From Deinococcales bacterium (GTDB taxonomy: Bacteria > Deinococcota > Deinococci > Deinococcales > JAAFIG01): a stretch of DNA of 64,000 nt. The notes beneath the pieces are model-generated. The model saw nothing but the letters and a program-made list of their open reading frames with translations, did not search any database and had not been told where the DNA came from. The stretch spans positions 9,497-73,496 of the forward strand of contig JANNVX010000114.1 of NCBI GenBank assembly GCA_031414595.1. The letters run 5' to 3'. The position numbers and the translations under genes are program-made. Below, in pieces: positions 18,870 to 57,581 of the stretch; within the stretch, counting starts at the first letter, position 1; every line of letters begins with the position of its first letter.

Positions 18870-18912
18870 AGTCTGAGCTTTGAAACTGTCTCCAAACTGA
18901 AGGTAAACTAAA
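18870..18912 (-). promoter_or_regulatory. TTCAG-type 11-bp-period array plus -10, leaderless ndvB promoter
   Basis: Minus strand: TTTAG-N6-TTCAG-N6-GACAG-N10-CAGACT-N6-ATG. Confidence 0.55.
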
Positions 18913-18934
18913 GTACAGACTTGAGATTTAGAAT

Positions 18935-20143
18935 TTACTGGGTAGGCTCGAGCGTTACTGGCTCGAGTGGCACAGGCTCAAGTGTTACTGGTTCGAGTGG
19001 CACAGGCTCGAGCGACACATCTAAGACCGCCGCAATGTCTTGTTCTGAAACCAGAGCGTTAGCAATGTTAGGTAAGTAAATCTCTTCGTAAATCGCTTTG
19101 ACAATAATCACCATCGGGACAGCCAAAAACGTACCAATAAAACCCATTAACGAACTAAACACCGAAACACTAATGATAATAGAAAGCGGCTGCAACTGCG
19201 TGGTACGCCGAAAAATATAGGGGCTAAAAAAATAGCCATCCAACTGCTGAAGTAAAACAGGAATAATCATTGCCCACAATAAAGCCGTCCATTGACCATT
19301 GGCAGCCGCAAACAGCATTGCCGGCAGCATCCCAACCAATGGTCCAATGACCGGAACTAAGTTGCAAACAGCATAAATTGCGCCGAACAACAATGCGTCC
19401 TGAAATCCAACCAGCGCCAAACCAACTGTTACCAAAACGCCTAACAACACCGAAATTGTTAAGGCAGCCACCAACCAAAGACTGAGTTGACGACCTAACC
19501 TTGATAACAAACGCTCAAAAGTGGAACGCATTGAACCAGGAATAGCACTGAGTAAACCCCGAACCACAGGCTGAGGATTAACCAATAAAAAGATGATCAT
19601 GGTAAGCAGTAAAAATAGCGAGGCAATCACACCAATCAGACCAGTAGCAGCATTGGAAACACCAAACATCAAAGCATTACTGCTCGAGCCAAGTAAAGCA
19701 CTAAGACTGGTTTTACCAGAGACCAAATCCGCCACTCCAGGAAACTGCATCAGCCACGGCAAGGACTCATTTAAGCGACCAAGCATATTTGGTACACCAA
19801 CCACAAAACGAGTACCCTGCACATAAAGTAACGGGGCAATCAAAATTACACCACCACCAATAAAGCCCATAACCAACAACACCACCACAACCGCACTCAA
19901 ACTCCGTGGTACACGGTGTACCTCGAGCCACATCACCAAGGGATTAAGCGCCAACGCCAGCACACTTGCTACCAACAACAATAACAAAGACCCAGCCGCC
20001 GCCGATGCCCACGACCCCAGCAGCAAAACCCCTAGGATTACCCCAGCCACAATCAGCAGTGTCCGCAGCAGTGCCGCTTGTTTCAAAGAAATCCAAGCCC
20101 CCTCGGTTTTGTCTCGAGTCTGTTTTTGAATAGAATTTGACAT
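18935..20143 (-). CDS. AI-2E family (PerM/YhhT) transporter
   Basis: LALALNPLV.WLE, NLVPVIGP, QQLDG..FSP, GTFLAVP; C-terminal (LEPV[PT])n tail. Confidence 0.88.
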   Translation of the reverse strand: MSNSIQKQTRDKTEGAWISLKQAALLRTLLIVAGVILGVLLLGSWASAAAGSLLLLLVASVLALALNPLVMWLEVHRVPRSLSAVVVVLLVMGFIGGGVILIAPLLYVQGTRFVVGVPNMLGRLNESLPWLMQFPGVADLVSGKTSLSALLGSSSNALMFGVSNAATGLIGVIASLFLLLTMIIFLLVNPQPVVRGLLSAIPGSMRSTFERLLSRLGRQLSLWLVAALTISVLLGVLVTVGLALVGFQDALLFGAIYAVCNLVPVIGPLVGMLPAMLFAAANGQWTALLWAMIIPVLLQQLDGYFFSPYIFRRTTQLQPLSIIISVSVFSSLMGFIGTFLAVPMVIIVKAIYEEIYLPNIANALVSEQDIAAVLDVSLEPVPLEPVTLEPVPLEPVTLEPTQ

Positions 20144-20150
20144 CAAACTG

Positions 20151-20204
20151 ATTCTTACAAACCAAGCTGTTAGCCTGACTTGGCATGGCTGAACTAGGGC
20201 TGAA
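20151..20204 (-). promoter_or_regulatory. TTCAG-type array upstream of the AI-2E gene
   Basis: Plus-strand CTGAA at 20189 and 20200 and CTGTT at 20167 (11-bp grid); on the minus strand followed by N10-AAGAAT-N7-ATG. Confidence 0.5.
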
Positions 20205-21824
20205 TTATTTGGGTTTAACGGTTGGTAATTTACTCAAATCGAGCCTAATGAACGTAACTATCCCATCAACTTTTACCACCACACTTTTTTGCCCTGCATC
20301 CCAAGCGATGCTCACCCCCAGCAAACCATTTAAGGCTCGCAGTGGCACATACATTTTGCCATTGTGTAAAATCGGGGCAGTATAGCCAGCACCACCCAAA
20401 CCAATGCTTAAACGAAGCACCGACCCAAGCCGCACAATCGTGGCTGTGCCTGCCGAATAAGCGGTTACTTCTGCCCCAACCAAAGCTGCCAATTCACGCA
20501 CAGGCAACATAATTGTGCTGCCCACCAAAATAGCTTTGGAAGCCAGTACAGTTGTATTCACGGTACTCGAGACGGCTGGACTCGAGATGACGGGCGTTAT
20601 GGCAGTTGGCGTTGAAGTAACTGGACTCGAGACGGCTGGCGTTGTGCCAGTTGGCGTTGAAACAACAGGACGAATGACCACAGGACTAGGCAAACCAACG
20701 CCACTTGTATCAGGTTCGGTTAAGGCTTGCAATTCAACCAGACTTAAACTGCGCCCCAGACCAAGGTTACTGCCCTTAAAACGCCCCCACGGAGCAAGCT
20801 GAGGGCTGGTGCTGCCTTGCAAGGCAAAGAGTGTTCCAGCCAAATTAGAAATAATAATTGTGCCATCATTAGCAATAATCGGCGAGGCATCAATTCGACT
20901 ATTTAAGTTCTTTTTCCATAATAGTTGCCCTGTGGCATTCAGCGCATAAAAGTTTGAATCAAAAGACCCAAAATAAATTGTGCCATCTTTGGCTAGGGCT
21001 GGAATTGAAGAAATATAACCTTCAGCTAAAAAAGTCCAAAGCGCTGTTCCATCACTACCAATGGCGTGCAGCTTTTTATCGTGTGAACCAACATAAATCG
21101 TGCCGTCTATGGCAACCACTGGACTCGAGAGAACATAAAAACCCGTTTTGTACTTCCAGCGCTGTGTACCATCGGCATTGACAGCATACAAATTTGAATC
21201 ACTCGAGCCAATATAAATCGTGCCGTCACTGGCAATGGCGGGCGAAGAAAACAAAAAGCCCTCGGTTTGGAATTTCCAGCGCTGTGTGCCATCAGGGTTA
21301 AAAGCGTGCAAGGCTTTATCGTGAGCGCCGATGTAAATTGTGCCATCTGTACCAATGGCTGGCGAAGAAAAAACCGATTGCCCGATTTTATACTCCCATT
21401 TAAGCTGCCCATCTGGGTTTAAGGCAAAAACCGTTCCCTTGCTGTTGCCAAAGTACAATGTGCCATCTGTGCCAATCGCGGGCGAAGAATAAATATCGCC
21501 GCCCGAAGCAAACGACCATTTGAGTTTTCCACTCGAGCTTAAAGCATAAAACGATTTGTTGTACGCACCAAAATAAATTGTGCCATCTGTGCCAAGTGCC
21601 GCACTTGACTTAACAATGCCACCAACCAAGAACTTCCATTTGAGTTTACCCAACGCCGAAACCGCATAAAAATACTGGTCTGTGCCGCCAAAGTAAATTG
21701 TGCCATCTGTGCCAATGATTGGAGAATTCGAGGCTGCACCAGTCAATTGCCATTTTATATCGCCAGACTTTGCTGTTGCAAAGCCACTGAGTAAAAACAC
21801 AAGTGCCATTAAAATCTTTTGCAT
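20205..21824 (-). CDS. Secreted PQQ-like beta-propeller repeat protein with Ser/Thr/Pro linker and C-terminal copper-amine-oxidase-N-like domain
   Basis: About 8 repeats SSPAIGxDGTIYxG...YAxxxDGxxKW; C-terminal 'G.MYVPLRAL...LG.SIAWD'. Confidence 0.8.
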   Translation of the reverse strand: MQKILMALVFLLSGFATAKSGDIKWQLTGAASNSPIIGTDGTIYFGGTDQYFYAVSALGKLKWKFLVGGIVKSSAALGTDGTIYFGAYNKSFYALSSSGKLKWSFASGGDIYSSPAIGTDGTLYFGNSKGTVFALNPDGQLKWEYKIGQSVFSSPAIGTDGTIYIGAHDKALHAFNPDGTQRWKFQTEGFLFSSPAIASDGTIYIGSSDSNLYAVNADGTQRWKYKTGFYVLSSPVVAIDGTIYVGSHDKKLHAIGSDGTALWTFLAEGYISSIPALAKDGTIYFGSFDSNFYALNATGQLLWKKNLNSRIDASPIIANDGTIIISNLAGTLFALQGSTSPQLAPWGRFKGSNLGLGRSLSLVELQALTEPDTSGVGLPSPVVIRPVVSTPTGTTPAVSSPVTSTPTAITPVISSPAVSSTVNTTVLASKAILVGSTIMLPVRELAALVGAEVTAYSAGTATIVRLGSVLRLSIGLGGAGYTAPILHNGKMYVPLRALNGLLGVSIAWDAGQKSVVVKVDGIVTFIRLDLSKLPTVKPK

Positions 21825-21877
21825 TTGCCACCCTCGCATAAAAATCAGTCCCTGTCAAACAACCGATTTATGAATAC

Positions 21878-21912
21878 GATTTATCGTCGTATAAAAAACA
21901 CGACGATAAATC
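21878..21912. other. 13-bp perfect stem-loop between co-oriented genes (possible terminator/stabiliser)
   Basis: GATTTATCGTCGT-N9-ACGACGATAAATC. Confidence 0.5.
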
Positions 21913-23581: not shown

Positions 23582-23679
23582 ACTGTACAAATAGCCTTTG
23601 AACATGCCCTGTCTTTCTCCTGAAGCCGACCTGAAGACATGATTTAGCAAAATTCAGGCAAGCCTCAGTTTTTATTCAA
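23582..23679. promoter_or_regulatory. Back-to-back TTCAG-type arrays in the glsB-like/dps divergent region
   Basis: Minus: TTCAG-N6-TTCAG-N6-GACAG-N6-TTCAA-N10-TACAGT (23635-23582). Plus: TTCAG 23653, CTCAG 23664, TTCAA 23675. Confidence 0.7.
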
Positions 23680-23777
23680 CTGCTTAAAAGTCGCTCGATT
23701 CAAAATAAGTTGATTAAGCCCTGGCTCGAAACTTCTCGAGCAGAAATAGATGCTTGGTATTAAAACAGGAGTGATTC

Positions 23778-25911: not shown

Positions 25912-25943
25912 ACGTTAGAACCAGTGCATTACGGCGATATTAC
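25912..25943 (-). promoter_or_regulatory. SARP-type operator site 1
   Basis: GTAATAT-cgcc-GTAATGC-N8-TAACGT, upstream of the truncated USP. Confidence 0.65.
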
Positions 25944-26800
25944 TGCCAGCGCTCGAGAACCTGATTATGTTGACCCACACAAGCTCCATCGCTCGAGAAT
26001 GGACAATTGGCTGTAACTTGCACTGGTTGACGATTACAGATTTTCTCCCCGTTTTTGATCCGCTCAGCAAGCACTAAAGTTTCTGGCATTGGTGAATCCT
26101 CGAGTTCTGCGCGTAAAAAATGAATGAACCGACGGTAATGTTCGATGGCAGCGTACTTATCTTCCACCACTGATAGACAAGTCATCAGTTTTTGATGGTA
26201 GTTCTCGCCAATATACGGGTCTATTCGTAACGCCCTGACTAAAGCACCAACTGCACCTGCACACGCTCCTGTTCCGCAATGCAGCAAAGAAATCTCGAGA
26301 TTAGCTCGGACATATACACCGCGCAGTTCTTCGCGTAATTCATTTGCCCAAGCTACTGTCATACTGGGTAAGAAATCTCCTTTGTACAAACCAATAACAT
26401 TCTGAAAAGCCCTGAGTTTTAATTCTTCAGTTGCGGCATGATGGGCTGATTCAAGGGTTCTATACATCTGGTTTAAGTCGGTGGATGCCAGCACATAGGC
26501 ATTTAAGCGGTAACGATTGTGCTGCTCGAGTAACACATCGTTATTTTCGAGTGCCTGACGAATACGGTGTACCGTGACCCGAAACCGATTATTGCTTTCT
26601 TTAGTCGGTTCGGTTTGCCAGAGTTGCTCAAAAATTTCTTCTTTTTGCTTACCTTCAGGGTGGGCAAGTAAATAAAAAAAGAGTTCCTCGGCAGTTTTAC
26701 TCTTAAATTGAGCCTCTGCTCCATTCACCAGCACTTGATGCGTGCCTAGCGTTCTAATCTCGAGACTGATAAAGACCTCCAAGTGTAACCGAGCTTTCAA
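25940..26800 (-). CDS. SARP/AfsR-like transcriptional regulator (wHTH + BTAD) with Cys-rich C-terminus, paralog 1
   Basis: EIRTLG..QV, ELFFYLLAHP, EQLW, FRVTVHRIRQAL (wHTH); LYKGDFL, WANELRE, ALRIDPY.E..HQKLM, E..DSP.PET (BTAD). Start uncertain: GGAGG sits 5 nt before ATC 26770. Confidence 0.85.
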   Translation of the reverse strand: MKARLHLEVFISLEIRTLGTHQVLVNGAEAQFKSKTAEELFFYLLAHPEGKQKEEIFEQLWQTEPTKESNNRFRVTVHRIRQALENNDVLLEQHNRYRLNAYVLASTDLNQMYRTLESAHHAATEELKLRAFQNVIGLYKGDFLPSMTVAWANELREELRGVYVRANLEISLLHCGTGACAGAVGALVRALRIDPYIGENYHQKLMTCLSVVEDKYAAIEHYRRFIHFLRAELEDSPMPETLVLAERIKNGEKICNRQPVQVTANCPFSSDGACVGQHNQVLERWQ

Positions 26801-26835: not shown

Positions 26836-26867
26836 ATTATCCTAATTATTAATTACCAAAGCATTAC
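26836..26867 (-). promoter_or_regulatory. SARP-type operator site 2 (upstream of BTAD regulator 1)
   Basis: GTAATGC-tttg-GTAATTA-N8-GATAAT. Confidence 0.65.
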
Positions 26868-26896: not shown

Positions 26897-26928
26897 GTAA
26901 CGCTATGGTAATGCCAACCTTGCAGACT
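26897..26928 (+). promoter_or_regulatory. SARP-type operator site 3
   Basis: GTAACGC-tatg-GTAATGC-N8-CAGACT, then RBS AAGGAGG and USP ATG 26947. Confidence 0.7.
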
Positions 26929-26946: not shown

Positions 26947-27375
26947 ATGTTTCAACATATCCTCGTTCCAATAGACTCGAGCCAATCCAGCAAAGCCGCC
27001 GCACAACTCGCTGCACGGTTGGCTCGAGCATGGGGAAGTCAGGTTACTTTTGTGCATATTTACGAAGGTGACGCGACCCAAGAAGCTCGGGCTTTACTCG
27101 AGGGTTTTATACAATACACCCGTCTTGTCCCACACCTGATTCTCGAGCCGATGCAGCATAACTTATCAGAAACACTGGTTGGACTTGCCACTCGAGAAGC
27201 CACCGAACTAATCCTGATTGGTGTTCATGCCTATGCCAGACTCGAGCAAGAAGTGCTGGATGGGGTGGCAGGAAGCATTTCGGAACAAGCCAAAATACCC
27301 GTCTTAATCGTGCCAATAGAAAGTAAAAAAGTTGGGTTTGAAGCGCGTTGGGCAAGTGCGGTAATGCAGCCGTAA
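26947..27375 (+). CDS. Universal stress protein (single domain)
   Basis: MFQHILVPIDSS..S..A, LILIGVH, PVLIVP. Confidence 0.85.
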   Translation: MFQHILVPIDSSQSSKAAAQLAARLARAWGSQVTFVHIYEGDATQEARALLEGFIQYTRLVPHLILEPMQHNLSETLVGLATREATELILIGVHAYARLEQEVLDGVAGSISEQAKIPVLIVPIESKKVGFEARWASAVMQP

Positions 27376-27392
27376 TGCCAGTACCGCAAACT
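27361..27392 (+). promoter_or_regulatory. SARP-type operator site 4 (upstream of the sORF-USP-nrfHA-pyk run)
   Basis: Perfect GTAATGC-agcc-GTAATGC-N8-CAAACT. Confidence 0.75.
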
Positions 27393-30480: not shown

Positions 30481-32335
30481 ATGAAAACTAAGTCGCTCGA
30501 GCCACCGCTTAAAAAAATGATTGCCCAAGTCCTTAACCTACGCAACCAAGCTATTGCCCTCGAGCAAACGTACCACGTTGAACTTAAAAAAATTCGCCCC
30601 CCATATTTGCAAAGCGCTCGAAATTTAATTCATTACTTGGCGGTGCGCCAACAAGACATTCGTGAGATACAACTTGAGTTGCAACGCCTTGGTCTGAGTT
30701 CGCTTGGGCGCATGGAAGCCAATGTTTTAGCAACGCTCAATGCCGTGTTGTTCGCTTTGCAACGCATGGCTGGCTCGAGCGAACAGCTTGAGGTAACGCT
30801 TGACCCACAGCTTGAGGTAACGCTTGACCCACAGCTTGGGCGCTTACTTCGTAATCACACCACCCGAATTCTTGGTAAAAGTCCACGACATCGGGCAGTG
30901 AGAATCATGGTCACAATGCCCGAACAAGCTGCCACCGATGCTGGTTTAATTGCCAAATTTCTCGAGTGTGGTATGGATATTATGCGAATAAACTGCGCTC
31001 ATGACGATGCCATAACTTGGGCAAAGATGCTCGAAAATCAGCGCCAAGCAACCATTCAACTTGGACGCAGTTGTCGTGTTGTCTTTGATTTGGCTGGACC
31101 AAAACTTCGCACTGGATTATTTGAAGCGAGCGCAGAAGTCCTCAAAATAAAACCAGCGCGATCAATTTGGACGAGTGGTGACCAAAGCTCGAGTCTTTTT
31201 TACAACCACAAAGTTAAGTGCGCCAACCCAAACAGTCTGTATTCCAGTAACCGAGTTACAATTGCAAAGCTGCCAACTAGGTGATCAATTTTTGTTGACC
31301 GATGCTCGAGGTCGCTCGAGAATTTTTGAGATTATTGAGCTTTTAGCCACTGGTTGTATTTGCCAAATCGAACGAACTGCCTACTTGACTTCGGGAATGC
31401 CAATTTGTGTTTACCACAATAAAAAACAATTGCTTGAGGGTCGAATTGGCAAGTTGCCCTCAAAACCACAAGCCCTCGAGTTGCGAGTTGGAGATACGTT
31501 AATCGTGACCCACGATAGTATTCTTGGCAATCAAGCCCGAATTGAGAACGGGATGCCAATACCAGTCCAGATTGGTTGTACTTTGCCACAAGTCTTTGGT
31601 GATGTCAAACCAAACGAGCGAATTCTATTTGACGACGGCATCATCGCTGGCATCATCAAAAAAGTCAGTCCAGAACAACTCGAGGTAGAAATCACCAATG
31701 TGGCTGGAGGTCTAGCAAAACTTCGTTCCGAAAAAGGCATTAACTTACCTGATACCGATTTTTCGATAGCTGCTTTGACTGAAAAAGACCTCGAAGACCT
31801 CAAGTTTATTGTTAAAAACAGCGATATGGTTTCGTTATCCTTTGTCCGAAACCGAAAAGACATCGAAATGTTGATTGCTCAACTCGAGCAATTAGGCGGG
31901 AAGCACCTTGGCATTGTCTTAAAGATTGAGAATCGTCTTGCTTTTGAGAATTTACCCGATTTACTACTGACAGCCTTGTCTCACCCACCGGTTGCAATCA
32001 TGATTGCTCGAGGCGACTTAGCTGTGGAAATAGGGTTTGAGCGCCTTGCTGAAGTCCAAGAAGAAATTCTTTGGCTCTGCGAAGCGGCGCATATTCCCGT
32101 GATTTGGGCAACCCAAGTGCTGGATTCGTTAGCAAAAAATGGTTCACCAACTCGAGCCGAAGTGACCGACGCTGCCATGTCAGGACGCGCTGAATGCGTC
32201 ATGCTTAACAAAGGCTCATACATTCCCGAAGCCTTGTTGTTTCTTGATAATGTTCTGCGACGCATGAAGCAACATCAGAACAAAAAAACTTCGATGCTCA
32301 GACGCTTAAAAGTAACAACGCCAAAGCTCGAGTAG
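30481..32335 (+). pseudogene. pyk: Long-type pyruvate kinase, split by a frameshift near 31156-31160
   Basis: ORF1: GLSSLGR.E, RIMVTMP, RINCAHD, DLAGPKLRTG. ORF2: FDDG, KGINLP, KIE, ARGDL.VE, WATQVL, TRAEVTDA, CVMLNKG. The frames join as KIKPA(R)DQFGRVV if 2 nt are restored in GCGCG. Confidence 0.85.
30784..30838 (+). repeat. In-frame 24-bp tandem duplication inside pyk (QLEVTLDP x2)
   Basis: CAGCTTGAGGTAACGCTTGACCCA repeated exactly twice, plus a partial third copy. Confidence 0.9.
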
Positions 32336-32366: not shown

Positions 32367-33215
32367 CTAAGCCAGACCAACGTAAGCACCATCTCTCGAG
32401 AAACAGCAATTGGTTGTAAATGACATCGGTTCGCGGTTACAAATTTTCTCACCGTTTTTGATTCGTTCAGCCAGAGCAACCGTTTCGGGCATTGGTGAAT
32501 CCTCAAGTTCTACTTGTAAAAAATGAATAAAGCGTCGGTAATGCTCTATTGCAATGTATTTATCTTCGACCACGGATAAACAGGTCATTAGTTTTTGATG
32601 ATGATTCTCTCCCATATACGGGTCTATCCGCAGGGCTGCATCTAAGGTACTGACTGCTTTGGCACACGTACCAGTTCCACAATAAAGCAGCGAAATCTCG
32701 AGGTTAGCACGAACAAAAACCCCGCGCAGTTGTTCACGCAGTTCATTTGCCCAAGTTGTGGTTATGCTCGGTAAAAAGTCGCCTTGATAGAGTGCGATAA
32801 CACGCTTAAAGGCTTGCAATCGCAGTTCTTTGTTTGGGGCATGGCGGGCTTCTTCTAGGGTCTGATAAATTTGGTTTAAGTCGGTAGCCGCCAGCACAGC
32901 CGCGTTTAAGCGGTAACGATTATCTTGCTCGAGCAGTGCCTGATTATGCCCGAGTGCCTGACGAATACGGTGTACGGTGACTCTAAAACGATTATTGCTT
33001 TGGTTGGTTGGTTCGGTTTGCCAGAGTTGCTCGAGAATTTCTTCTTTTTGCTTACCGTTTGGATGAGCCAGTAAGTAAAAAAAGAGTTCTTCGGCGGTTT
33101 TACTCTTAAATTGGGCGGCTTGGTTATTGACCAAAACATGGTGTCTGCCAAGGGTCGCAATCTCAAGAATCGGGCAAACCTCAAGAAGTTCTTGCCCAAT
33201 CCGACCTTGCTCCAT
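32367..33215 (-). CDS. SARP/AfsR-like regulator (wHTH + BTAD) with Cys-rich C-terminus, paralog 2
   Basis: Closely similar to 25940..26800 (AQFKSKTAEELFFYLLAHP, NNRFRVTVHRIRQAL, ANLEISLL.CGTG.C, KLMTCLSVVEDKY, AERIKNGEKICNR); RBS AAGGAG before ATG 33215. Confidence 0.88.
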   Translation of the reverse strand: MEQGRIGQELLEVCPILEIATLGRHHVLVNNQAAQFKSKTAEELFFYLLAHPNGKQKEEILEQLWQTEPTNQSNNRFRVTVHRIRQALGHNQALLEQDNRYRLNAAVLAATDLNQIYQTLEEARHAPNKELRLQAFKRVIALYQGDFLPSITTTWANELREQLRGVFVRANLEISLLYCGTGTCAKAVSTLDAALRIDPYMGENHHQKLMTCLSVVEDKYIAIEHYRRFIHFLQVELEDSPMPETVALAERIKNGEKICNREPMSFTTNCCFSRDGAYVGLA

Positions 33216-33299
33216 TTTTTTCTCCTTGACACTGCGTAAAAAACCCAAATTCTGGAGTATTGCAACTCGAGCGAATTTGGGTTTTGCAGGAGTAAAATC

Positions 33300-33342
33300 A
33301 GAGTAAGGCGCAGAACTGAAGTCTGGCTGAAGAGTAACTGAA
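33300..33342 (-). promoter_or_regulatory. Perfect triple TTCAG array upstream of BTAD paralog 2
   Basis: TTCAG-N6-TTCAG-N6-TTCAG-N10-TACTCT. Confidence 0.75.
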
Positions 33343-37374: not shown

Positions 37375-37406
37375 AGTTTGCAACTCGAGAATTACCAGTG
37401 CATTAC
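37375..37406 (-). promoter_or_regulatory. SARP-type operator site 5 (pckG operon)
   Basis: GTAATGC-actg-GTAATTC-N8-CAAACT. Confidence 0.72.
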
Positions 37407-37427: not shown

Positions 37428-37459
37428 GTAATGCCTTGGTAATGCCAGCCTTCGAGACT
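37428..37459 (+). promoter_or_regulatory. SARP-type operator site 6 (ldh-like gene)
   Basis: Perfect GTAATGC-cttg-GTAATGC-N8-GAGACT, then RBS GGAGG. Confidence 0.75.
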
Positions 37460-38411: not shown

Positions 38412-38449
38412 TTCAGCAAGTCTTCAGCTAAATAACCTTACGCATTCAG
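38412..38449 (+). promoter_or_regulatory. TTCAG array upstream of the hsp20-dps-BON run
   Basis: TTCAG at 38412, 38423 and 38445 (11-bp grid); -10 not clearly placed. Confidence 0.6.
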
Positions 38450-38563
38450 GTGATGATGCTTACTTATGGAGAGTCAAATTTTCCACTGGCAGATTGTGGC
38501 ATAGGTCGTGGTTTAAGTAAATTATTTTACTTGAAGAAGATGGGTTAGTTAAGGAGAAAAACA

Positions 38564-47340: not shown

Positions 47341-47390
47341 GAATCCTCCAAAATTTCTTCAGTTCCCAAGTAAAAGTCAAGCAAAGTCAA

Positions 47391-47495
47391 TTGAATTTAA
47401 CCTGAGCCAAAACTGTGCTTGGACTGAAGAGCCGTGTTTTCCTCAGCTTGGCTTCAAGCATCAAACAGCTTCCGAGCAGCCCTTGAGCCTAACCT
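47391..47495. promoter_or_regulatory. Back-to-back TTCAG-type arrays in the yqhA-like/eRF1-like divergent region
   Basis: Minus-facing TTGAA/CTGAG/CTGTG/CTGAA at 47391/47402/47413/47424. Plus: CTCAG-N6-TTCAA-N6-AACAG-N6-AGCAG-N10-TAACCT. Confidence 0.65.
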
Positions 47496-47518: not shown

Positions 47519-48625
47519 ATGCTGGAATCACAAAAACTCGACCAAGAGACAATCAAAGCGCTAACTTTGGAGCTTCCAAAAACCGAGGTTTTGACGGCTG
47601 TTTGCCATGTCAATCCGGGTAGCCAAGTGAACCAAGGGGCGGCACTACGGATTCGGATAAAAAATGCACTGCATCAACTCGAGTTGCCTGATGCGCTTAA
47701 GAACGCGGTGATGGATGATTTGAGTCTTGCCCAAACCCAGACCCGAACAAGGGTTTATTACCTTTGGGATGAACACGGTCATGTCAAATCGCGGATGATC
47801 GATGTACAACTCGAGTTACCGGAAGTGGTGCGTTTTGGTCTGCCAGATTTTGAACCATTGCATTTTGCACTTGAAACCAATCCCGTCACCGCAATTGTGC
47901 TGGTTGACCGTGAATGGCGGCGTTTATTTACCGTCAACCTAGGCGAAATCCATGAACTGCTAAATAGCGAAGATACACTCGAGAATGATAAATCTGGGGT
48001 GCTTGGGCGCGACACCGATAAAAGTCAACGCGAGCAGCACGATGACCAAGTTTTTTGGCGCAAGCTGATAGAGCAAATTATTCATTTACATCAGGCGGTT
48101 GGGTTTACACAATTGCTACTTGCGGGTACGCCCGAAGCCCGTTCAAGTTTATTTGAGCAAATGCCTCTGGTTTTACAGCAATTGGTGGCTGGTGAGTTTA
48201 TTGTGTTAGGCGATGCGACACCTGCCGATGTTCTCGAGGCGGCGCAAATGACTTTAGCACTTGCCACATACAACACTGGCACTACCCTGCTCGAAAAAGT
48301 TCTTGGGTATGGTATGAAAGGGGCTGAGACAACACTAACGGCTGTTCAGGAAGGGCAAATTTATGAACTTCTGGTTTCTGGCGATGCCTTTGATATTCCA
48401 GTCTGGCGTGATGCCCAAGGGTACATTTTTGCCACCTATCCCGCCCAAGGTATTTCACCATTGACTGGTCTTGGTGTAGAGGGCATGGTCTTGCGGGATG
48501 CACTTCCAGAATTACGTGAGCGTTTTGGTCTAAAAGTGCATTTTTTGCATGGCGAGCTTGCCAAAAGGCTCGAGACCGAAATGGGCGGCTTGGCTGGATT
48601 AGCACACTACCAAGCAGTCAAATGA
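47519..48625 (+). CDS. Bacterial archaeo-eukaryotic release factor (baeRF/eRF1/pelota-like) protein
   Basis: IVLVDR...RLF...LGEI.E, LLLAG.PE...L...P..L, G.E.TL.AVQEGQI.ELLV, C-terminal GGLAGLAHY (eRF1 GGIGAxLRY-like); RBS AAGGAG. Confidence 0.7.
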   Translation: MLESQKLDQETIKALTLELPKTEVLTAVCHVNPGSQVNQGAALRIRIKNALHQLELPDALKNAVMDDLSLAQTQTRTRVYYLWDEHGHVKSRMIDVQLELPEVVRFGLPDFEPLHFALETNPVTAIVLVDREWRRLFTVNLGEIHELLNSEDTLENDKSGVLGRDTDKSQREQHDDQVFWRKLIEQIIHLHQAVGFTQLLLAGTPEARSSLFEQMPLVLQQLVAGEFIVLGDATPADVLEAAQMTLALATYNTGTTLLEKVLGYGMKGAETTLTAVQEGQIYELLVSGDAFDIPVWRDAQGYIFATYPAQGISPLTGLGVEGMVLRDALPELRERFGLKVHFLHGELAKRLETEMGGLAGLAHYQAVK

Positions 48626-50592: not shown

Positions 50593-51591
50593 ATGCTTCC
50601 CATGCGAGTTGCTGTCTTTAACACCAAACCTTATGACCGAACTTTTTTAACGGCTGCCAATGCCGAGCAGTTTGAATTGGTCTTTCTCGAGCCGCGTTTA
50701 GAGCTTCTGACCGCTCCACTGGCGGCGGGTTGCCAAGTGGTTTGTGCCTTTGTCAACGATGACCTAAGCGCCGCAACACTCGAGATTTTGGCGGGTCTGG
50801 GCGTACAACTGATTGCTTTGCGTTGTGCAGGATTTAATCAAGTTGACTTAAAAGCCGCCAAGCGCCTTGGTTTGATTGTGGTTCGTGTTCCGGCTTACTC
50901 ACCACATGCCGTGGCAGAACATGCTTTGGCACTGCTTTTAACCTTAAATCGGCAGATTCACAGGGCGTATAACCGTGTACGTGATGGTAATTTTGCTTTG
51001 GAAGGGTTACTTGGTTTTGACCTGCATAAAAAAACCATCGGGGTGATTGGCACAGGTAAAATCGGGGCTATTTTTGCCAAGCTGCTTCATGCTTTTGATT
51101 GCCGTATTGTGGCATTTGACCTGTTTCCAAATTTAGACCTTGGGTTTCTCGAGTACCTACCGCTTGAGCAGGTTTTTGCCGAGTCCGATGTGATTTCGCT
51201 GCATTGCCCATTAACCCCAGAAACCCAGCATTTGGTCAATCCAGAGCGCCTAGCCCAAATGAAACACGGCGCAATGCTGGTCAACACCTCAAGAGGCGGC
51301 TTAATTGATACTCCAGCCGTGCTAGAAGCCTTAAAGACTGGTCAGTTGGGGGCGTTGGCGTTAGATGTCTACGAAGAAGAAGCCGATTTATTCTTTGAGG
51401 ATTTATCGAACCGAGTGATTCAAGATGATGTTTTTATGCGCCTGATGACCCTGCCTAATGTTTTAATTACTGGACATCAAGGTTTTTTTACCAAGGAAGC
51501 ACTCGAGCAGATTGCTCGGACAACCATCGCCAACATTCAAGCATTTGCCAACAAGCAAGTGCTGACCAACCAGTGTTTAGCTGATTCTTAA
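50593..51591 (+). CDS. ldhA: Fermentative D-lactate dehydrogenase (D-2-hydroxyacid dehydrogenase)
   Basis: [57 protein letters not shown]. Confidence 0.9.
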
Positions 51592-52251
51592 GACATAGCC
51601 AACGTTACGAATGGTTTGCAATAAGCGCGGTTCGCCGTTTTCCTCGAGTTTTTGGCGCAACTGCGACATAAAGACTTCAACCACGTTGTCGTCACCCAAA
51701 AAGTCTTCATCCCAAACACGGTCAAGTAAGTACGATTTACTCATCACCCGTTCGGGCTGCTCTAAGAATTCTTGGAGCAACTTAAATTCTCGGCTAGTCA
51801 GGTTTAGAACCCGAGTACCGCGTTTGGCACTAAATGCGGGGACATCCATTTGTACGTCATCAAAGCGCAGTAAACTCGAGATTGTGCCTCCCATACGGCG
51901 TTGAATCGCTCGAATTCGCGCAATCAAAACATCGAAATTAACCGGTTTGACCACATAATCATCCGCGCCGGTATTTAAGCCTTCCATTTGGGCTTCTGCG
52001 GCATCGTTGGCGGTCAGCATAATGACTGGTAATTTTGTGTCCACCGCCCGTAAACGACGCAACACTTCAAAACCATCTATACCCGGCATCATCAGGTCTA
52101 AAATCATCATGTGTGGAGCGCGGTCAAGCACAGCCCGTAAGCCCTGTTCGCCGTTCTCAGCAGTATCGACTTGAAAACCCTCAAACGACAAGCCGCGCTT
52201 TAAGAAACTGCGAACACTTGCGTCGTCATCTACTACCAAGATTCGTTGCAT
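51577..52251 (-). CDS. OmpR/PhoB-family response regulator (MprA-like)
   Basis: [54 protein letters not shown]. Confidence 0.95.
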
Positions 52252-52275
52252 ATTACATAGTCTTACCACACGAAA

Positions 52276-52330
52276 TTGAACTCAAACTGAATTTCAGTTG
52301 GGCTTCAAGTTTACTTCAACAAAAATACAA
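52276..52330. promoter_or_regulatory. Back-to-back TTCAG-type arrays between the response regulator and doxX-like gene
   Basis: Minus: TTCAG-N6-TTCAA (52291-52276), then TAAGACT and a short leader. Plus: TTCAG 52293, TTCAA 52304, TTCAA 52315, TACAA 52326. Confidence 0.7.
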
Positions 52331-52378
52331 TCCAAGTTCGTAAATTGAGGTATAGCAAGAAATTTTTAAGGAGCTTTT

Positions 52379-52954
52379 ATGATGATTCCAATAGTAAAAA
52401 GTCCGCGCCTCGAGATTCCTGAACCCCGTATTAGCCGTTTTTTATTTGCCGATACACGACTAGCGCCACTTTGGACAATACTGCGCTTGTATCTTGGCTA
52501 TGAATGGCTGACGGCTGGCTGGGGCAAGCTGACCAATCCAGCCGGAGTTTGGGTTGGCGACAAAGCTGGCGCGGCAATTACTGGTTTTTTGAATGGCGCA
52601 CTTAAAAAAACAGATGGTGACCACCCAGATGTCCAAGGTTTTTATGCCTGGTTTATCAGCAATGTTGCCTTACCCAATGCCACGCTTTTTAGTTACTTGG
52701 TGACGTTTGGCGAAATAATCGTTGGGGTTGCGCTTATCTTGGGTTTATTTACGGGATTAGCCGCTTTTTTTGGTGGCTTTATGAACAGCAACTTTTTACT
52801 GGCTGGAACAGTCTCGAGTAACCCAGTCTTGTTTATCTTAGCCACATTTATTGTCTTGGCATGGCGCACCTCGGGGTATTGGGGTTTAGACCGCTTTGTT
52901 TTGCCAGCCGTAGGTATACGGGCGGTGTTCAGCCCGAATTCAGATAACAAATAG
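52379..52954 (+). CDS. DoxX/DoxD family membrane protein
   Basis: LRLYLGYEWL.AG.GK, GE..VG.ALILGLFT, NFLLAG.VS.NP, GLD. Confidence 0.88.
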   Translation: MMIPIVKSPRLEIPEPRISRFLFADTRLAPLWTILRLYLGYEWLTAGWGKLTNPAGVWVGDKAGAAITGFLNGALKKTDGDHPDVQGFYAWFISNVALPNATLFSYLVTFGEIIVGVALILGLFTGLAAFFGGFMNSNFLLAGTVSSNPVLFILATFIVLAWRTSGYWGLDRFVLPAVGIRAVFSPNSDNK

Positions 52955-52987
52955 CCCATCTAAAGCTGCCTGTTTTAACTTGGTGCT

Positions 52988-53539: not shown

Positions 53540-53594
53540 TTCAGTTTCGCTTCAGTTTGGGTTCAGTAAACTTGTGGTTTTTAACTGCCATACT
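53540..53594 (+). promoter_or_regulatory. Perfect triple TTCAG array upstream of the histidine kinase
   Basis: TTCAG at 53540, 53551 and 53562; CATACT at 53589, then N6-ATG (leaderless). Confidence 0.7.
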
Positions 53595-53600: not shown

Positions 53601-55508
53601 ATGAAGCATCAGCCTGTTAAAACCCGTTTTGCCAATTGGCTTGACCGCTCGAGTTTAGGTATAAAACTCAATGTTTTGGTGTTTCTGATTTTTTTTCCTC
53701 CCTTTGCTTTTACGATTGTTTTTGTCTGGATTACCACCCAATTGCAACAAAATGCCTTTAAGACAACTCAGTACCGCGAAGTTATTTTTGCTTTGAACGA
53801 CTTAAATGTTAGTTTGCTAAACATCGAAACTGGGATTCATGGTTATATTTTAACCAACAACCAAGAATTTCTTGAACCTTATGAAAATGGTCTTAAAGCC
53901 ACCCAAAAGGCGTTGGCTGAATTAGAAAGTAGTCTGGTACTTAGCCTCCAAGCTCAGATTTTAGGCTATGAAATTCAGATTTATCAAAGTTGGATTAAAA
54001 CCCAATTACAACAAAAAAGGTTTTTGAATCTAAAAACTCAAGATGCTGTTTTGTTAGAAAGTAAACGAAGATTTGATCGTTTGAGTCAGTCCTTTGCCCA
54101 AACCAAAACAGCCAGCTTAGAATTATTTGAAGGGAGTCGAACCAAGACTTTAGCGGATATAGGATTTTTAGGTTGGTTTCCGTGGTTACTCTTTATTTTA
54201 CTGCTTTTGGGTAATTTGTTATGGCGCTGGGGAGTCCAAAAATTTGTACTTTTTCCCTTAAAAGTCATTGCTGGCACTGTCCAAACCCAAGTTGTAGATT
54301 CAAAACCTCGTATTTCCTCGAAAAGTCAAGATGAAATTGGGCAACTGAGGAACAGCTTAAATATGTCCTATGAGGCTTTGCAGACTCGGACTCGAGATTT
54401 AGAGCTTTCTAATATCAATCTTGAAATTGGCAGGAAACAACTCGAGTTGAATTCAGAATTAGCCGTTAGTGCGGCTCGAATGGTGGCTTGGGATTGGAAG
54501 ATTCAAACCGATGTGGTTACACTTTCAAACAACACCGAAAGCATTTTGGGAGCAAAAGCCCTGACTTTTACCAGCGCCCAACCGTTTATGACAGCCATCC
54601 ACGAGGAAGATTTACCAGCCCATTTAGATATGATTCTCCAAACCCTAAAAACCAAGGAATCATACCGCTCGGCTTACCGAATTTGGAACGATACAAAACA
54701 AGATTACATTTGGATGGAGGAGTTTGGGACTGTGCGAACCGACCAGAACAATCAGATTATTGCCTTGAATGGGGTGACTCAAGACATCACCGAACGCAAA
54801 AAAATTGATATGGCACTGCGCCGCATCGTTGATGCCCAAAAGCGCTTTGTCGGCGATGCTGCCCATGAATTACGCGCCCCTTTAACCAGTATTCAAGGCA
54901 ATTTAGAATTGTTGCGCCGTTACCCAGATATGCCGCAACAAGACCGTTCAGAAACCGTTGCCGATGCCTACCGCGAAACGGCACGACTTGGGCGCTTAGT
55001 CGCCGATTTATTGGCACTGGCTCGAGGTGACGCTGGCGAAGGGCTACGGCTCGAGCCGTTAAAACTCCAAGACGTGCTAACTGACACCATACGGCAAGCC
55101 AGACACTTGGCAGTACATCACCGCCTCGAGTCCAGCGAATTGAAACCCTGTACCATCGAAGGCGACCATGACCGCTTAAAACAATTGCTGTTAATTCTCT
55201 TCGAGAATGCAATTAAGTACACCCCCAAACAAATGCTTATTCATTGTTCACTCGATTGTATAGATAACTGGGCAGAGATTCGTATCAAAGATTCGGGCAT
55301 GGGCATTGCCCCAGAAGATATTCCCTTTGTCTTTGAACGTTTCTTCCGTGCCGATAAGGGACGCACCCGAGGCATTGACCCTGGCGGCACAGGTTTAGGT
55401 TTACCGATTGCTCAATGGATTGTTGCCCAGCACGGCGGAGAAATTCGCCTCGAGAGCCAAGTTGGAATTGGCACAACCGCTATTTTGCGCTTACCGATTG
55501 CCCCATAA
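53601..55508 (+). CDS. Sensor histidine kinase (CHASE3-like - HAMP - PAS - HisKA - HATPase)
   Basis: ETG..GY.LT....FLEPY, DEIG.L...LN, WDW...IHEED...GV.QDITERK, HELRAPLT, ENAIKY, D.G.GI, GTGLGL. Confidence 0.93.
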   Translation: MKHQPVKTRFANWLDRSSLGIKLNVLVFLIFFPPFAFTIVFVWITTQLQQNAFKTTQYREVIFALNDLNVSLLNIETGIHGYILTNNQEFLEPYENGLKATQKALAELESSLVLSLQAQILGYEIQIYQSWIKTQLQQKRFLNLKTQDAVLLESKRRFDRLSQSFAQTKTASLELFEGSRTKTLADIGFLGWFPWLLFILLLLGNLLWRWGVQKFVLFPLKVIAGTVQTQVVDSKPRISSKSQDEIGQLRNSLNMSYEALQTRTRDLELSNINLEIGRKQLELNSELAVSAARMVAWDWKIQTDVVTLSNNTESILGAKALTFTSAQPFMTAIHEEDLPAHLDMILQTLKTKESYRSAYRIWNDTKQDYIWMEEFGTVRTDQNNQIIALNGVTQDITERKKIDMALRRIVDAQKRFVGDAAHELRAPLTSIQGNLELLRRYPDMPQQDRSETVADAYRETARLGRLVADLLALARGDAGEGLRLEPLKLQDVLTDTIRQARHLAVHHRLESSELKPCTIEGDHDRLKQLLLILFENAIKYTPKQMLIHCSLDCIDNWAEIRIKDSGMGIAPEDIPFVFERFFRADKGRTRGIDPGGTGLGLPIAQWIVAQHGGEIRLESQVGIGTTAILRLPIAP

Positions 55509-55543
55509 AAAAACCAACTTGGGTTAAACCCAAGTTGGTTTTT
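55509..55543. terminator. Bidirectional intrinsic terminator
   Basis: AAAAACCAACTTGGGT..ACCCAAGTTGGTTTTT between convergent genes. Confidence 0.85.
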
Positions 55544-55552
55544 ATTAAAGCC

Positions 55553-56182
55553 TTAGTTTGAGGCTTTGGATTTTGCATTGGCGGCTGGTGTTGGATAAGT
55601 GATCGTAATACCTGCCAAAGACTGGGTTACCACGTCATCGCCGCGTCCAAGATTAACATCGGTAGTGGTGTTGCGGTCAACATCGGTGACCATGTTCCAG
55701 CCTGCTTTGATTGGTTTACCGCTTGTCCATTCGCCGGCTGTTTTGGCAAACACCAAGAAACGGTTTCCCCCAGCAGCTTTGCCATTGGTGCTGTCTGCCA
55801 GTAACCTATCTTTCTCGCCATTGCCATTGGTGGCATCCATGTCGTACTTTGCATCGTTGGTTTTGTCTTCGTAAACAATAAACTTGTAAAAGCGTTGGGT
55901 ATCTGTTCCAAGGTCTAGGGTTGCCACCAATGTGCCACTAAACCCACCAACTCCACCTGTAATCTGAATTGCAGTTGCAAAAGCTGCCGTTTCTGATTGC
56001 TCGGTGTTTGCACCACCAAAACTGGTAAAGCGCAACATTGATAAGCCGTAATTGCTGGCGGCTGGTGCAGTCCCATTGACACCACCGGCAAAACCAGGTC
56101 CGCCGCTAATCACATTGCCTAAAAGTCCACAACTTGTTAATGCCATTCCAAGGGCTGTAACTGCCAAAATACTCTTTTTCAT
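55553..56182 (-). CDS. Putative lipoprotein
   Basis: MKKSILAVTALGMALTSC lipobox; RBS GGAGG. Confidence 0.75.
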   Translation of the reverse strand: MKKSILAVTALGMALTSCGLLGNVISGGPGFAGGVNGTAPAASNYGLSMLRFTSFGGANTEQSETAAFATAIQITGGVGGFSGTLVATLDLGTDTQRFYKFIVYEDKTNDAKYDMDATNGNGEKDRLLADSTNGKAAGGNRFLVFAKTAGEWTSGKPIKAGWNMVTDVDRNTTTDVNLGRGDDVVTQSLAGITITYPTPAANAKSKASN

Positions 56183-56253
56183 ATATCCTCCAAATCGCTT
56201 CTTGCGATACCGTGCAGTTTGCAACCCTTAACCAAAGCGCCAATAAAGCCAAA

Positions 56254-56323
56254 CTGAGGCATCGCTGAATCAAGCCACCGTACAGCCCTGCCTCAGCCAA
56301 GCGTCAGTTTGATTATTTAAGCT
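56254..56323. promoter_or_regulatory. Back-to-back TTCAG-type arrays between the lipoprotein and LEA-like genes
   Basis: Minus: TTCAG-N6-CTCAG (56269-56254). Plus: TACAG-N6-CTCAG-N6-GTCAG-N10-TAAGCT. Confidence 0.62.
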
Positions 56324-56369
56324 GCTTTTCGCGGCGCACCACACACCCAAAGCGCCGCACAGGAGATTT

Positions 56370-56684: not shown

Positions 56685-56690
56685 ATAAAA

Positions 56691-56722
56691 AGATAAAGCG
56701 CCAAAATTTTGGCGCTTTATCT
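56691..56722. terminator. Perfect 32-bp palindrome between convergent genes
   Basis: AGATAAAGCGCCAAAA/TTTTGGCGCTTTATCT. Confidence 0.75.
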
Positions 56723-56726
56723 CGAG

Positions 56727-56957
56727 TCATTTTTTAGGTTTCAGTAAGCTATACAAAGCCAAACCACCCGTCAAAAGCAGTGAATTCCAAGTCAGGTATT
56801 TATCGAGTGTCTTAGAAGTTTGCAACAAACTGTTTTTACTTTTTGCAATTCGCTGCTCGAGGGCAGTCGTTTTGCCGCTTTTTACAGTTGGCTGTAACTC
56901 AAGCAGTTTTTGCTTACGAAGTTGAATCCGTCCACTTAGGGTTTGCGGCTGAGCCAT
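56727..56957 (-). CDS. Small C-terminally anchored protein (YqjK-like position in operon)
   Basis: Third gene of an overlapping trio; hydrophobic C-terminal tail followed by basic residues. Confidence 0.5.
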   Translation of the reverse strand: MAQPQTLSGRIQLRKQKLLELQPTVKSGKTTALEQRIAKSKNSLLQTSKTLDKYLTWNSLLLTGGLALYSLLKPKK

Positions 56958-57229
56958 AAAAACACCCCCGCCGCAAGCAACGAAAAACTACCGATGATAA
57001 ATGCCGCCAAAGCTGGCGATAGCGCCAAAGACAACGCTGTAAAAGCCGCCCAAGTCATCCAGACCGAGCCTGTTAATAACAATCCACCAGCCACCAGCAC
57101 AAAGACCAACGACTGCAACAACACCCGTAATTGCTGACGAAAACGTAATCCCTCGAGTTCAAATAGTTCCACGGCATTAATCAGCATTTGGGCTAAAGCC
57201 ACCGTCATTTTCGCCCACGTCCCATCCAA
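56936..57229 (-). CDS. YqjE/phage-holin-like two-TM protein
   Basis: ELFELE..., two TM helices; overlaps both neighbours. Confidence 0.6.
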   Translation of the reverse strand: MDGTWAKMTVALAQMLINAVELFELEGLRFRQQLRVLLQSLVFVLVAGGLLLTGSVWMTWAAFTALSLALSPALAAFIIGSFSLLAAGVFLWLSRKP

Positions 57230-57510
57230 GACAGCAATAAACCCGCCCCAAAGACCACGGCAAGTGTGGCTAATGGTTTAGCCCTTGTTTGAAGCTCGAG
57301 TTTCTCGAGTAAGCCCACAGCACTGCGTTTGGCAGCATCGGCAACCTCGGCAGCTTGGTCTACTGGAATACCCGCTTTTTCAGCCACTTGTTTACCATCC
57401 ACCATTAAGTTTTGAACTTCTGGGCGGGCAAAAAAATTGCGTAACCAGCTACTGAATGGTGTGTCGTCGGTTTGAGCCTCGGTTGTATTTTCAAATTCTT
57501 GGTTGGTCAT
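57205..57510 (-). CDS. ElaB/YqjD/DUF883-like tail-anchored protein
   Basis: C-terminal R.KP.ATLAV.FGAGLLL...RGRK motif. Confidence 0.65.
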   Translation of the reverse strand: MTNQEFENTTEAQTDDTPFSSWLRNFFARPEVQNLMVDGKQVAEKAGIPVDQAAEVADAAKRSAVGLLEKLELQTRAKPLATLAVVFGAGLLLSWMGRGRK

Positions 57511-57527
57511 GATGCACCTCGAGTTTA

Positions 57528-57581
57528 AGAATAGCCAAACAGCTTGAAGGCATTCTGTTTTAGGGCTGAAGTAAACCTGAA
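57528..57581 (-). promoter_or_regulatory. TTCAG-type four-unit array plus -10 upstream of the elaB-like operon
   Basis: TTCAG-N6-TTCAG-N6-AACAG-N6-TTCAA-N10-TATTCT; same layout as 23582-23635. Confidence 0.75.

Follow-up and report, generated by a model that had tools for sequence, protein, structure and literature searches.

We analyzed a 64,000-base stretch of DNA, called the window below, that comprises bases 9497 to 73496 of contig C114 (73,496 bases) in the genome of an uncultured Deinococcales bacterium (G000; 4,488,778 bases in 120 contigs). The closest relatives of this genome in the public genome collection are metagenome-assembled Deinococcales. Between window positions 18870 and 57581 lies a cluster of stress-related genes whose promoters carry direct repeats of the pentamer TTCAG on an 11-bp grid (the TTCAG arrays), and the same cluster encodes an OmpR/PhoB-type response regulator (RR; 51577 to 52251, minus strand) that we propose as the probable reader of these arrays. 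Pfam matches further identify a 2820-amino-acid (aa) GH94 glucan-synthase-like protein, an AI-2E transporter, a GlsB/YmgE-type protein (weak match), two Dps proteins, four BON-domain proteins, Hsp20, four USP-domain genes, NrfA-type cytochromes, a GTP-dependent phosphoenolpyruvate carboxykinase (PEPCK), a lactate/malate dehydrogenase, a P-type ATPase, a UPF0114 protein, an eRF1-like (baeRF) protein, DoxX, and a CHASE3-PAS histidine kinase (53601 to 55508, plus strand). Two additional proteins, of 286 and 293 aa, combine a weakly matching winged helix with a BTAD domain behind it, as small SARPs do. The region had been described in an earlier note, made from the sequence alone, as rich in general-stress genes, and this is borne out by Pfam for the Dps, BON, Hsp20, GlsB/YmgE-type, USP-domain, and eRF1-like proteins. 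Its finer labels fared less well: the open reading frame (ORF) labeled ElaB has no Pfam match at all, and the YqjE-like and LEA-like labels correspond to sub-threshold matches only.

The TTCAG arrays are strongly overrepresented and locally clustered. The pattern TTCAGNNNNNNTTCAG (TTCAG-N6-TTCAG) has nine matches in the window, far above the mean of 0.13 (maximum, 1) in 100 dinucleotide-preserving shuffles. The whole genome holds 14 matches, 9 of them on contig C114, which makes up 1.6% of the genome. Perfect three-unit arrays are found only twice genome-wide, upstream of the SARP-like gene BTAD-2 and of the kinase gene. When read and then aligned on the 11-bp grid, all 13 stretches for which the earlier note had claimed such units contain them. 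Altogether, 15 promoters carry two to four units on an exact 11-bp grid, with every array oriented with its gene, so that the arrays mark a locally clustered promoter set with fixed geometry. TTCAG is the commonest unit, and CTCAG, TTCAA, and NACAG also occur. Among the aligned arrays the pentamer alone is kept; the spacers differ and are weakly T-rich.

A position weight matrix (PWM) of 54 columns was built from 14 aligned sites, 10 of which scored at least 14 bits when left out of the matrix. A Markov-simulated genome gave six matches of at least 14 bits and none of at least 16 bits, and the real genome outside contig C114 gave four and two, respectively, the latter at C107:873 and C88:267288. 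The same scan added the fifteenth promoter of the window (52928 to 52981, before a 112-aa ORF), which was absent from the earlier list. The matrix was dropped as a cross-genome test, since it fails in other genera: in the complete genome G025 the true site upstream of the RR scores only 9.0. The best array outside C114 lies at C107:873-926 (PWM score, 22.8) and reads TTTAG-TTCAG-CACAG-TAAAG, followed after 10 bp by TAGAAT. A small membrane-protein-like ORF lies behind it on a contig of 7.9 kb.

On the minus strand, the array of the cyclic-glucan-synthase-like gene (18886 to 18912) reads TTTAG-TTCAG-GACAG, with the candidate -10 hexamer CAGACT at 18870 to 18875, 6 nucleotides (nt) before ATG 18863. 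The AI-2E family transporter gene is preceded by TTCAG-TTCAG-CAAGT-AACAG (20167 to 20204) with AAGAAT at 20151 to 20156, and the gene for the GlsB/YmgE-type small membrane protein (Transgly_assoc; E 1.6e-4) by TTCAG-TTCAG-GACAG-TTCAA (23598 to 23635) with TACAGT at 23582 to 23587. BTAD-2 (32367 to 33248) has three perfect TTCAG units (33316 to 33342) and TACTCT at 33300 to 33305, an array that is kept in G015. The UPF0114 (YqhA-like) gene has TTCAG-CACAG-CTCAG-TTCAA (47391 to 47428) and TTGACT at 47375 to 47380. The RR gene has two units, TTCAG-TTCAA (52276 to 52291), with TAAGAC(T) at 52260 to 52265, 7 to 8 nt before ATG 52251. A 223-aa ORF whose real start is near 56182 (MKKS...) follows TTCAG-CTCAG-(TTTAT)-(TTTGG), in which units three and four are degenerate (56232 to 56269), with CAAACT at 56216 to 56221. 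The last array on this strand, TTCAG-TTCAG-AACAG-TTCAA (57544 to 57581) with TATTCT at 57528 to 57533, precedes two small ORFs, one of 101 aa and then one of 97 aa with a weak PF07332 (YqjE-type) match.

On the plus strand, dps1 and the BON gene that follows it lie behind TTCAG-CTCAG-TTCAA-(AAAAG), with a degenerate fourth unit (23653 to 23690) and CAAAAT at 23701 to 23706; this array is kept in G055 and G075, with a related form in G060 and G080. The genes for hsp20, dps2, and two BON proteins lie behind TTCAG-TTCAG-AACCT-TTCAG (38412 to 38449) with TTACTT at 38460 to 38465. The array of the eRF1-like gene, CTCAG-TTCAA-AACAG-AGCAG (47442 to 47479) with TAACCT at 47490 to 47495, is kept in G075 and G015 and not in genera g3, g4, and g5. 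Divergently from the RR gene, doxX has TTCAG-TTCAA-TTCAA-TACAA (52293 to 52330) and TAAATT at 52341 to 52346. The 112-aa ORF has TTCAG-TTCAG-AATAG-TAAAG (52928 to 52965) and TAACTT at 52976 to 52981, 6 nt before ATG 52988. The kinase gene has three perfect TTCAG units plus TGTGG (53540 to 53577) and (C)CATACT at 53588 to 53594, 6 to 7 nt before ATG 53601. A 104-aa LEA/apolipoprotein-like ORF (weak Pfam match) follows TACAG-CTCAG-GTCAG (56281 to 56307) and TAAGCT at 56318 to 56323.

The distance between the arrays and the candidate -10 elements is fixed. Each of the six hexamers listed in the earlier note lies exactly 10 bp past the last unit. The hexamer at this distance has the form NANNNT in 11 of the 15 promoters (background, 0.066; binomial P of about 1e-10), where the degenerate fourth unit of dps1, the kinase gene, and the 223-aa ORF was picked with the -10 element in view. 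With promoters that have a clean last unit only, the count is 7 of 10 (P of about 6e-7). In four genes (glucan synthase, 112-aa ORF, kinase, and RR) the hexamer stands 6 to 8 nt before the start codon, which is the requirement for a leaderless transcript, and those transcripts therefore look leaderless. According to the parts consulted of a study of Deinococcus deserti, leaderless mRNAs make up 60% of the mRNAs of that species (PMC4007540). Several start codons were corrected in the course of this reading: the RR starts at ATG 52251, the kinase at ATG 53601, and the eRF1-like gene at 47519, and the GlsB-like gene and the 223-aa ORF begin downstream of their own arrays, behind Shine-Dalgarno sequences.

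One array outside the window has a mapped transcription start. Among the matches listed, the best named ortholog of the RR (59.5% identity) is encoded on the D. deserti VCD115 plasmid NC_012529.1. This gene, Deide_2p00600, shares an operon with a HAMP kinase gene and faces a gene for a hypothetical protein of 152 aa. The intergenic sequence between them reads CTCAG-N6-CTCAG-N6-TCCAG-N6-GACAG, 10 bp, TACTGT, 6 nt, ATG, so the geometry of the window predicts a start at 80250. In the rows consulted of the supplement to de Groot et al. 2014 (PMC4007540; Tables S3, S5, and S8), Deide_2p00610 has a leaderless start at 80250 with the motif TACTGT and 379 to 3205 start-site reads. The published start thus coincides with the predicted one. 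The same tables give the RR gene Deide_2p00600 a leaderless start at 80150 with TAGAAT.

The RR consists of a receiver (Response_reg; E 1.6e-30) and a winged-helix domain (Trans_reg_C; E 1.1e-24). Together with repeats in the same orientation at 11 bp and a last unit 10 bp before NANNNT in 11 of 15 promoters, this agrees with what is expected of an OmpR/PhoB-type regulator with tandem direct-repeat operators. Its closest solved relatives are Mycobacterium tuberculosis PrrA (E 3.7e-54) and PhoP (E 2e-52), with MtrA also near, and no NCBIfam equivalog reaches its cutoff (PhoB models score 197.8 bits where 296.2 are required). In these comparisons the label "MprA-like" that the RR had been given has no specific basis. 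As described in the sections consulted of the PhoP-DNA structure paper (5ED4; PMC4832192), M. tuberculosis PhoP binds as a tandem head-to-tail dimer to direct repeats of TCACAGC with a strict 4-bp spacer and thus an 11-bp period. In that complex Asn212 makes contact with C7, with A8, and with the latter's partner T, and Glu215 with the partner bases of G9 and C10; the 5' T-C is read by Val213, Tyr217, and Tyr220 (PMC4832192). Compared with the PhoP helix VNVVESYVSYL, the RR keeps Asn, Val, and Glu and has Ser replaced by Val, Tyr by Phe, and Tyr by Gln, changes that would fit the motif, in which the CAG core is kept and the 5' flank is new. PhoP with its sites and the RR with its proposed sites share the 11-bp repeat period, the helix Asn and Glu, and the CAG core. 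They differ in the 5' half of the unit (TT here versus TCA in PhoP sites), in the substituted reading residues, in the number of units (up to four here), in kinase type, and in a regulon that has nothing to do with virulence lipids. We do not claim orthology.

The predicted recognition helix is conserved. The signature NVVE(V/T)(F/Y)xxQLRQKL holds, but for a few single substitutions, in the 26 listed orthologs. A 47%-identical homolog of G047 comes close to it, and the 45% and 41% paralogs encoded in G000 differ from it; these two paralogs, which also lack upstream arrays, were ruled out as readers. Directly before the start codon of the G047 homolog, in a locus of 75% GC (L133; C1:1386078-1386140), stands TTCAG-N6-TTCAG, 10 bp, and TACAGT.

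The TTCAG arrays travel with the RR gene across the order. We sampled 151 Deinococcales genomes and defined RR orthologs by an E value of 1e-73 or better (54 to 100% identity), which gave orthologs in 29 genomes. Twenty-eight RR loci in 27 genomes, G000 included, were read, and the 47% homolog of G047 was added; G055 and G075, whose RR is 98 to 100% identical to that of G000, and G045 (83%, the level of genus mates that were read) were left out. Of the 28 loci, which belong to four families and range in GC content from 0.46 to 0.75, 22 have a pair of units on the 11-bp grid in the 250 bp upstream of the RR gene. By this phylogenetic footprinting, the arrays are kept upstream of the RR orthologs, with 0.00 to 0.08 pairs per locus expected from shuffling and a density of 5.6 per kb upstream of the gene versus 0.24 elsewhere in the loci. 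The flanks and the divergent gene vary by genus, with doxX here, a Dps gene in genus g4, and a small hypothetical gene in Deinococcus.

Array counts over whole genomes follow the RR as well. Three-unit arrays (YTCAR on the grid) were counted in genomes grouped by the presence of the RR and of a SARP-like gene, which was defined by an E value of 1e-25 or better and was found in 49 of the 151 genomes. The mean number of arrays was 4.45 in 20 genomes with both genes, 4.78 in 9 genomes with the RR only, 1.14 in 29 genomes with the SARP-like gene only, and 0.43 in 93 genomes with neither; a reversed-pattern control gave 0.10 to 0.56 arrays per genome across the four groups. Outside the window's own family, the mean was 2.80 in genomes with the RR (n = 15) versus 0.54 in those without it (n = 117), and in family f5 it was 4.57 versus 0.17. 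The genomes are kin, so the counts overstate independence, and these figures are descriptive rather than tests. Order-wide counts of two-unit pairs were unusable: high-GC genomes exceed the reversed control nearly everywhere, and identical matches that recur across species were taken for conserved coding sequence. Within the complete genome G025, 31 exact pairs compare with 6 in the control and are dispersed over the chromosome. Genes behind promoter-like arrays in G025 and in G040 encode DUF892 (YciE-type), YflT, PRC-barrel, LEA/apolipoprotein-like, GGDEF, and PAS-GAF proteins.

The regulon appears to cluster around its regulator a second time. The RR of G128 (family f5; 65% GC) is 62% identical to that of G000, and 10 of the 11 three-unit arrays of this genome are on the contig of the RR. 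The interval G128:C128:16000-64000 (loci L217 to L219) contains 32 grid-spaced pairs, or about 20 distinct sites in the 50 kb surrounding the RR, where the +10-bp geometry is the same. The arrays there lie in front of genes for a GlsB-type protein, an Nramp transporter, a CRP-like regulator, glycosyltransferases, and SRPBCC proteins and in front of an AI-2E transporter region. Judged from these sequences, G128 is a second, independent clustering.

On the strength of the RR-upstream arrays, the phyletic pattern, and the conserved helix, the OmpR/PhoB-type RR is the best candidate reader among the genes of the cluster, as had been proposed, and we consider the arrays likely to be its operators. 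Several observations weigh against this assignment. Six of the 28 RR loci have no upstream pair (G035, G060, G126, G119, G134, and G139b, the second copy in G139). Family f3, Deinococcus proper, shows no contrast, with 5 arrays in 7 genomes with the RR (0.71) versus 30 in 29 genomes without it (1.03), which counts against a simple one-reader picture in this family. Good arrays are present in G040 (92% complete), where the search gave no ortholog of the RR or the kinase and no full ortholog of a SARP-like protein. Dps orthologs keep their arrays in the window's genus and genus g5, and the eRF1-like gene does so within the window's genus only; this uneven retention means that regulon membership turns over. 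Among 48 unit pairs in G130, by eye only the RR-adjacent one looks like a clear promoter array and most others resemble coding or chance matches; the regulon seems small there. Two further predicted D. deserti-type starts (about 1650814 and 2198954, G130 coordinates) are not among the rows consulted of the supplementary tables (PMC4007540). Two properties of the SARP-like genes belong on the same side of the balance: BTAD-2 carries a perfect three-unit array, as autoregulation would predict, and, since a pentamer followed by 10 bp spans as much as a heptamer followed by 8 bp, the TTCAG arrays fit the SARP spacing rule as well as they fit that of the RR.

These properties point to an alternative in which BTAD-1 and BTAD-2 read the arrays as side-by-side dimers over the -35 region, in the fashion of AfsR, and the RR is only a regulon member or an upstream input. 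That both BTAD proteins are SARP-like was overlooked when the RR was first assigned as the reader. They have Trans_reg_C matches below the Pfam cutoff (E 2e-4 and 4e-4, respectively), BTAD matches (E 1.6e-12 and 3.4e-14), and an AfsR-type NCBIfam match. In the sections consulted of the AfsR work, SARP boxes are direct repeats spaced 11 or 22 bp apart, the 3' repeat standing 8 bp away from the -10 element; the AfsR box is centered near -29.5 over a poor -35 element, which in afsS is TTCAGC (PMC10936776). With a winged helix in three cluster proteins and a shared geometry, the RR assignment needed comparative evidence, and this evidence makes the SARP-like alternative unlikely. Arrays are somewhat more common in genomes with the SARP-like gene than in those without it when the RR is absent (1.14 versus 0.43). 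However, array occurrence does not follow the SARP-like gene overall: the nine RR-containing genomes (of 29) without a SARP-like match have the highest mean (4.78), and the complete genome G025 is among them. Like G025, D. deserti has the RR and arrays, one of them with the mapped start, and no SARP-like match at an E value of 1e-25 or better. Conversely, G005 and G030, which belong to the window's genus, have the SARP-like gene and no RR or kinase ortholog, and they contain no three-unit arrays.

The SARP-like genes also have a repeat of their own. BTAD-1 (25940 to 26800, minus strand), which is 78% identical to BTAD-2, has no TTCAG array upstream, and neither do its orthologs in G005, G075, G030, G070, G050, G085, and G045. 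These genes are preceded instead by a conserved cATTAC-N5-cGTTAC with an inverted GTAAT-N6-GTAAT. Units similar to GCATTACC (RTTAC-N6-RTTAC) occur six times in the window, where 0.28 are expected, and fall into the intergenic regions of BTAD-1/usp and PEPCK/dehydrogenase. They have an 11-bp period, form partly inverted pairs, and lie at 25928 to 25943, 26852 to 26867, 26897 to 26912, 27361 to 27376, 37391 to 37406, and 37428 to 37443. The GCATTACC repeat may be the operator of the SARP-like proteins. A TTCAG array is found only at BTAD-2 and its G015 ortholog, so that BTAD-2 looks like a target that couples the second circuit to the first.

In a further alternative, the arrays would have another reader, such as a paralogous OmpR-type regulator from the 44 to 48% identity group or a non-OmpR protein, and the RR gene would be merely a conserved target. 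G040, which keeps its arrays without a detectable RR, would agree with this, and so would the G047 homolog with a TTCAG pair, spacing, and hexamer before its own gene. Recurrent three-unit arrays, such as TTCAG-N6-CTCAG-N6-YTCAG, are also found in Deinococcus genomes without an RR ortholog (G096, G072, G115, and G012; also G072, G115, G022, G052, G062, and G118), which suggests related regulators with shared specificity. However, the gap in G040 spans the whole RR-Dps-kinase block and may be a deletion or an unbinned contig, and the apparent lack of the RR in G070 coincides with a contig end. The two paralogs in G000 have neither upstream arrays nor a similar recognition helix, and the G047 homolog shares the helix signature and would extend rather than replace the explanation by the RR. 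We therefore give this alternative a low probability. That the arrays are nonregulatory, left over from a short dispersed repeat or due to an oddity in the composition of the cluster's intergenic DNA, in a genome that is rich in other overrepresented words such as CTCGAG, is very improbable, as the pentamer alone is kept while the spacers differ, phase, orientation, and distance to the -10 element and to leaderless start codons are fixed, arrays persist upstream of orthologs while the flanks diverge, and one array has a mapped start site.

With the RR as the probable reader, the following mechanism can be proposed. The RR would be phosphorylated, presumably by the CHASE3-PAS kinase, and the phosphorylated molecules would bind head to tail, with each winged helix reading one (T/C)TCAG unit per DNA turn. 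Taking the hexamer 10 bp downstream as the -10 element at -12 to -7 would place the unit starts near -27, -38, -49, and -60. A -35 hexamer would be missing from these promoters, and the bound RR would substitute for it and recruit RNA polymerase to a weak -10 element. The arrays before the RR and kinase genes would provide positive feedback, and the array before BTAD-2 would couple a second, nested circuit. The output would be about 15 promoters, which serve Dps, BON, Hsp20, GlsB/YmgE-like, LEA-like, and DoxX proteins, the eRF1-like factor, the glucan synthase, and the AI-2E transporter. Binding, activation, the kinase partner, and the signal are the predicted parts of this scheme. The proposal that the kinase and the RR are autoregulated stands insofar as both promoters have arrays. 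Their pairing is indicated by synteny in two genera only: orthologs of the C-terminal two-thirds of the kinase lie 1 to 5 kb from the RR in G075, G015, G050, G045, and G085. The best kinase match of G025 is far from the RR, and the D. deserti RR pairs with a HAMP kinase. Pairing is plausible here but is not a conserved feature.

This arrangement resembles several known systems in part. In pho-box activation by Escherichia coli PhoB and Bacillus subtilis PhoP, the -35 element is replaced by direct repeats of 11-bp period whose distance to the -10 element is fixed, and in B. subtilis PhoP acts at four repeats that extend from about -60 to -20. The four-unit arrays would occupy a comparable region, whereas the unit sequence, signal, and regulon differ. 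The AfsR/SARP systems share the 11-bp direct repeats, the distance of 8 bp between the 3' repeat and the -10 element, and, through the two SARP-like proteins, a place in the cluster; they differ in that the phyletic pattern follows the RR and in that the SARP-like genes have GCATTACC repeats of their own. Mycobacterial MprAB is similar as an autoregulated OmpR-family system over stress genes, with TCTCAG-like repeats as its motif according to the earlier note, but the comparisons with solved structures and NCBIfam models give no specific sequence link, and the kinase here is of the CHASE3-PAS type. In Deinococcus radiodurans, the two-component pair RadS/RadR adjoins a divergent dps2, according to the sections consulted of a Deinococcus review (PMC6300522). 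The RR orthologs of genus g4 are likewise divergent from a Dps gene, with arrays between the two. RadR was set aside as an ortholog of the RR, since no D. radiodurans record is among the matches listed in the plasmid search (weakest listed, 41.9% identical), and no RadR binding motif is given in the literature searched. The gene content parallels the RpoS and SigB regulons through Dps, BON/OsmY, and YmgE/GlsB-type proteins here and YciE-type (DUF892) and YflT proteins in relatives. This is an analogy of content only, as the proposed control is by an activator-dependent, housekeeping-type promoter rather than an alternative sigma factor.

The cluster, called an island in the earlier note, reads as a resident gene cluster, and a mobile genomic island is not supported. 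Its composition is native, with a GC content of 0.462 versus 0.472 for the genome and 4.2 CTCGAG sites per kb versus 5.2 per kb genome-wide. No tRNA was found in a search of the cluster, and no integrase is among the general Pfam matches of its proteins. The sites in G025 are dispersed over the chromosome. An Rfam scan of the window gave no match. Two other features were noted in passing. The overlapping ORFs at 30481 to 31284 and 31175 to 32335 both match the pyruvate kinase barrel (profile positions 2 to 99 and 73 to 315, respectively) and may represent a pyruvate kinase gene that is split or carries a frameshift. At 8479 to 10316, just beyond the stress cluster, an AAA_21 (AbiEii-type ATPase) gene is followed by a DUF4276 gene, a pair that we presume could be a two-gene defense-like module.

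In a literature search that covered sources other than subscription journals, no report was found of the motif, of a binding site for this RR clade, or of Deide_2p00600 or Deide_2p00610 in main texts. The Deinococcus review names other two-component systems and, in the sections consulted, gives no motifs for them (PMC6300522). The proposed activator-operator mechanism is ordinary and textbook for the OmpR/PhoB family, so it would be no surprise to two-component specialists. What the analysis supplies is a cis element, a candidate regulator with a helix signature, and a concrete regulon of protective proteins, for a lineage previously without a described stress circuit of this familiar type. 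D. deserti and Deinococcus ficus are cultured species with the same regulator and operator, one of them with a mapped start, so the hypothesis is directly testable at the bench. The cluster is also an example of a regulon that is gathered around its regulator in two distant lineages despite turnover of its membership. As a speculative possibility that goes well beyond the operator assignment, an ancient single clade of OmpR-type regulators with the helix NVVE-x-(F/Y)-xx-QLRQKL, reading YTCAG, may be the general-stress and desiccation master switch of the Deinococcales, in the role that RpoS or SigB has elsewhere. Its regulon would tend to assemble around the regulator gene, here and independently in G128, and in this lineage it would drive a nested SARP-like circuit with GCATTACC operators over USP, PEPCK, and malate/lactate dehydrogenase genes.

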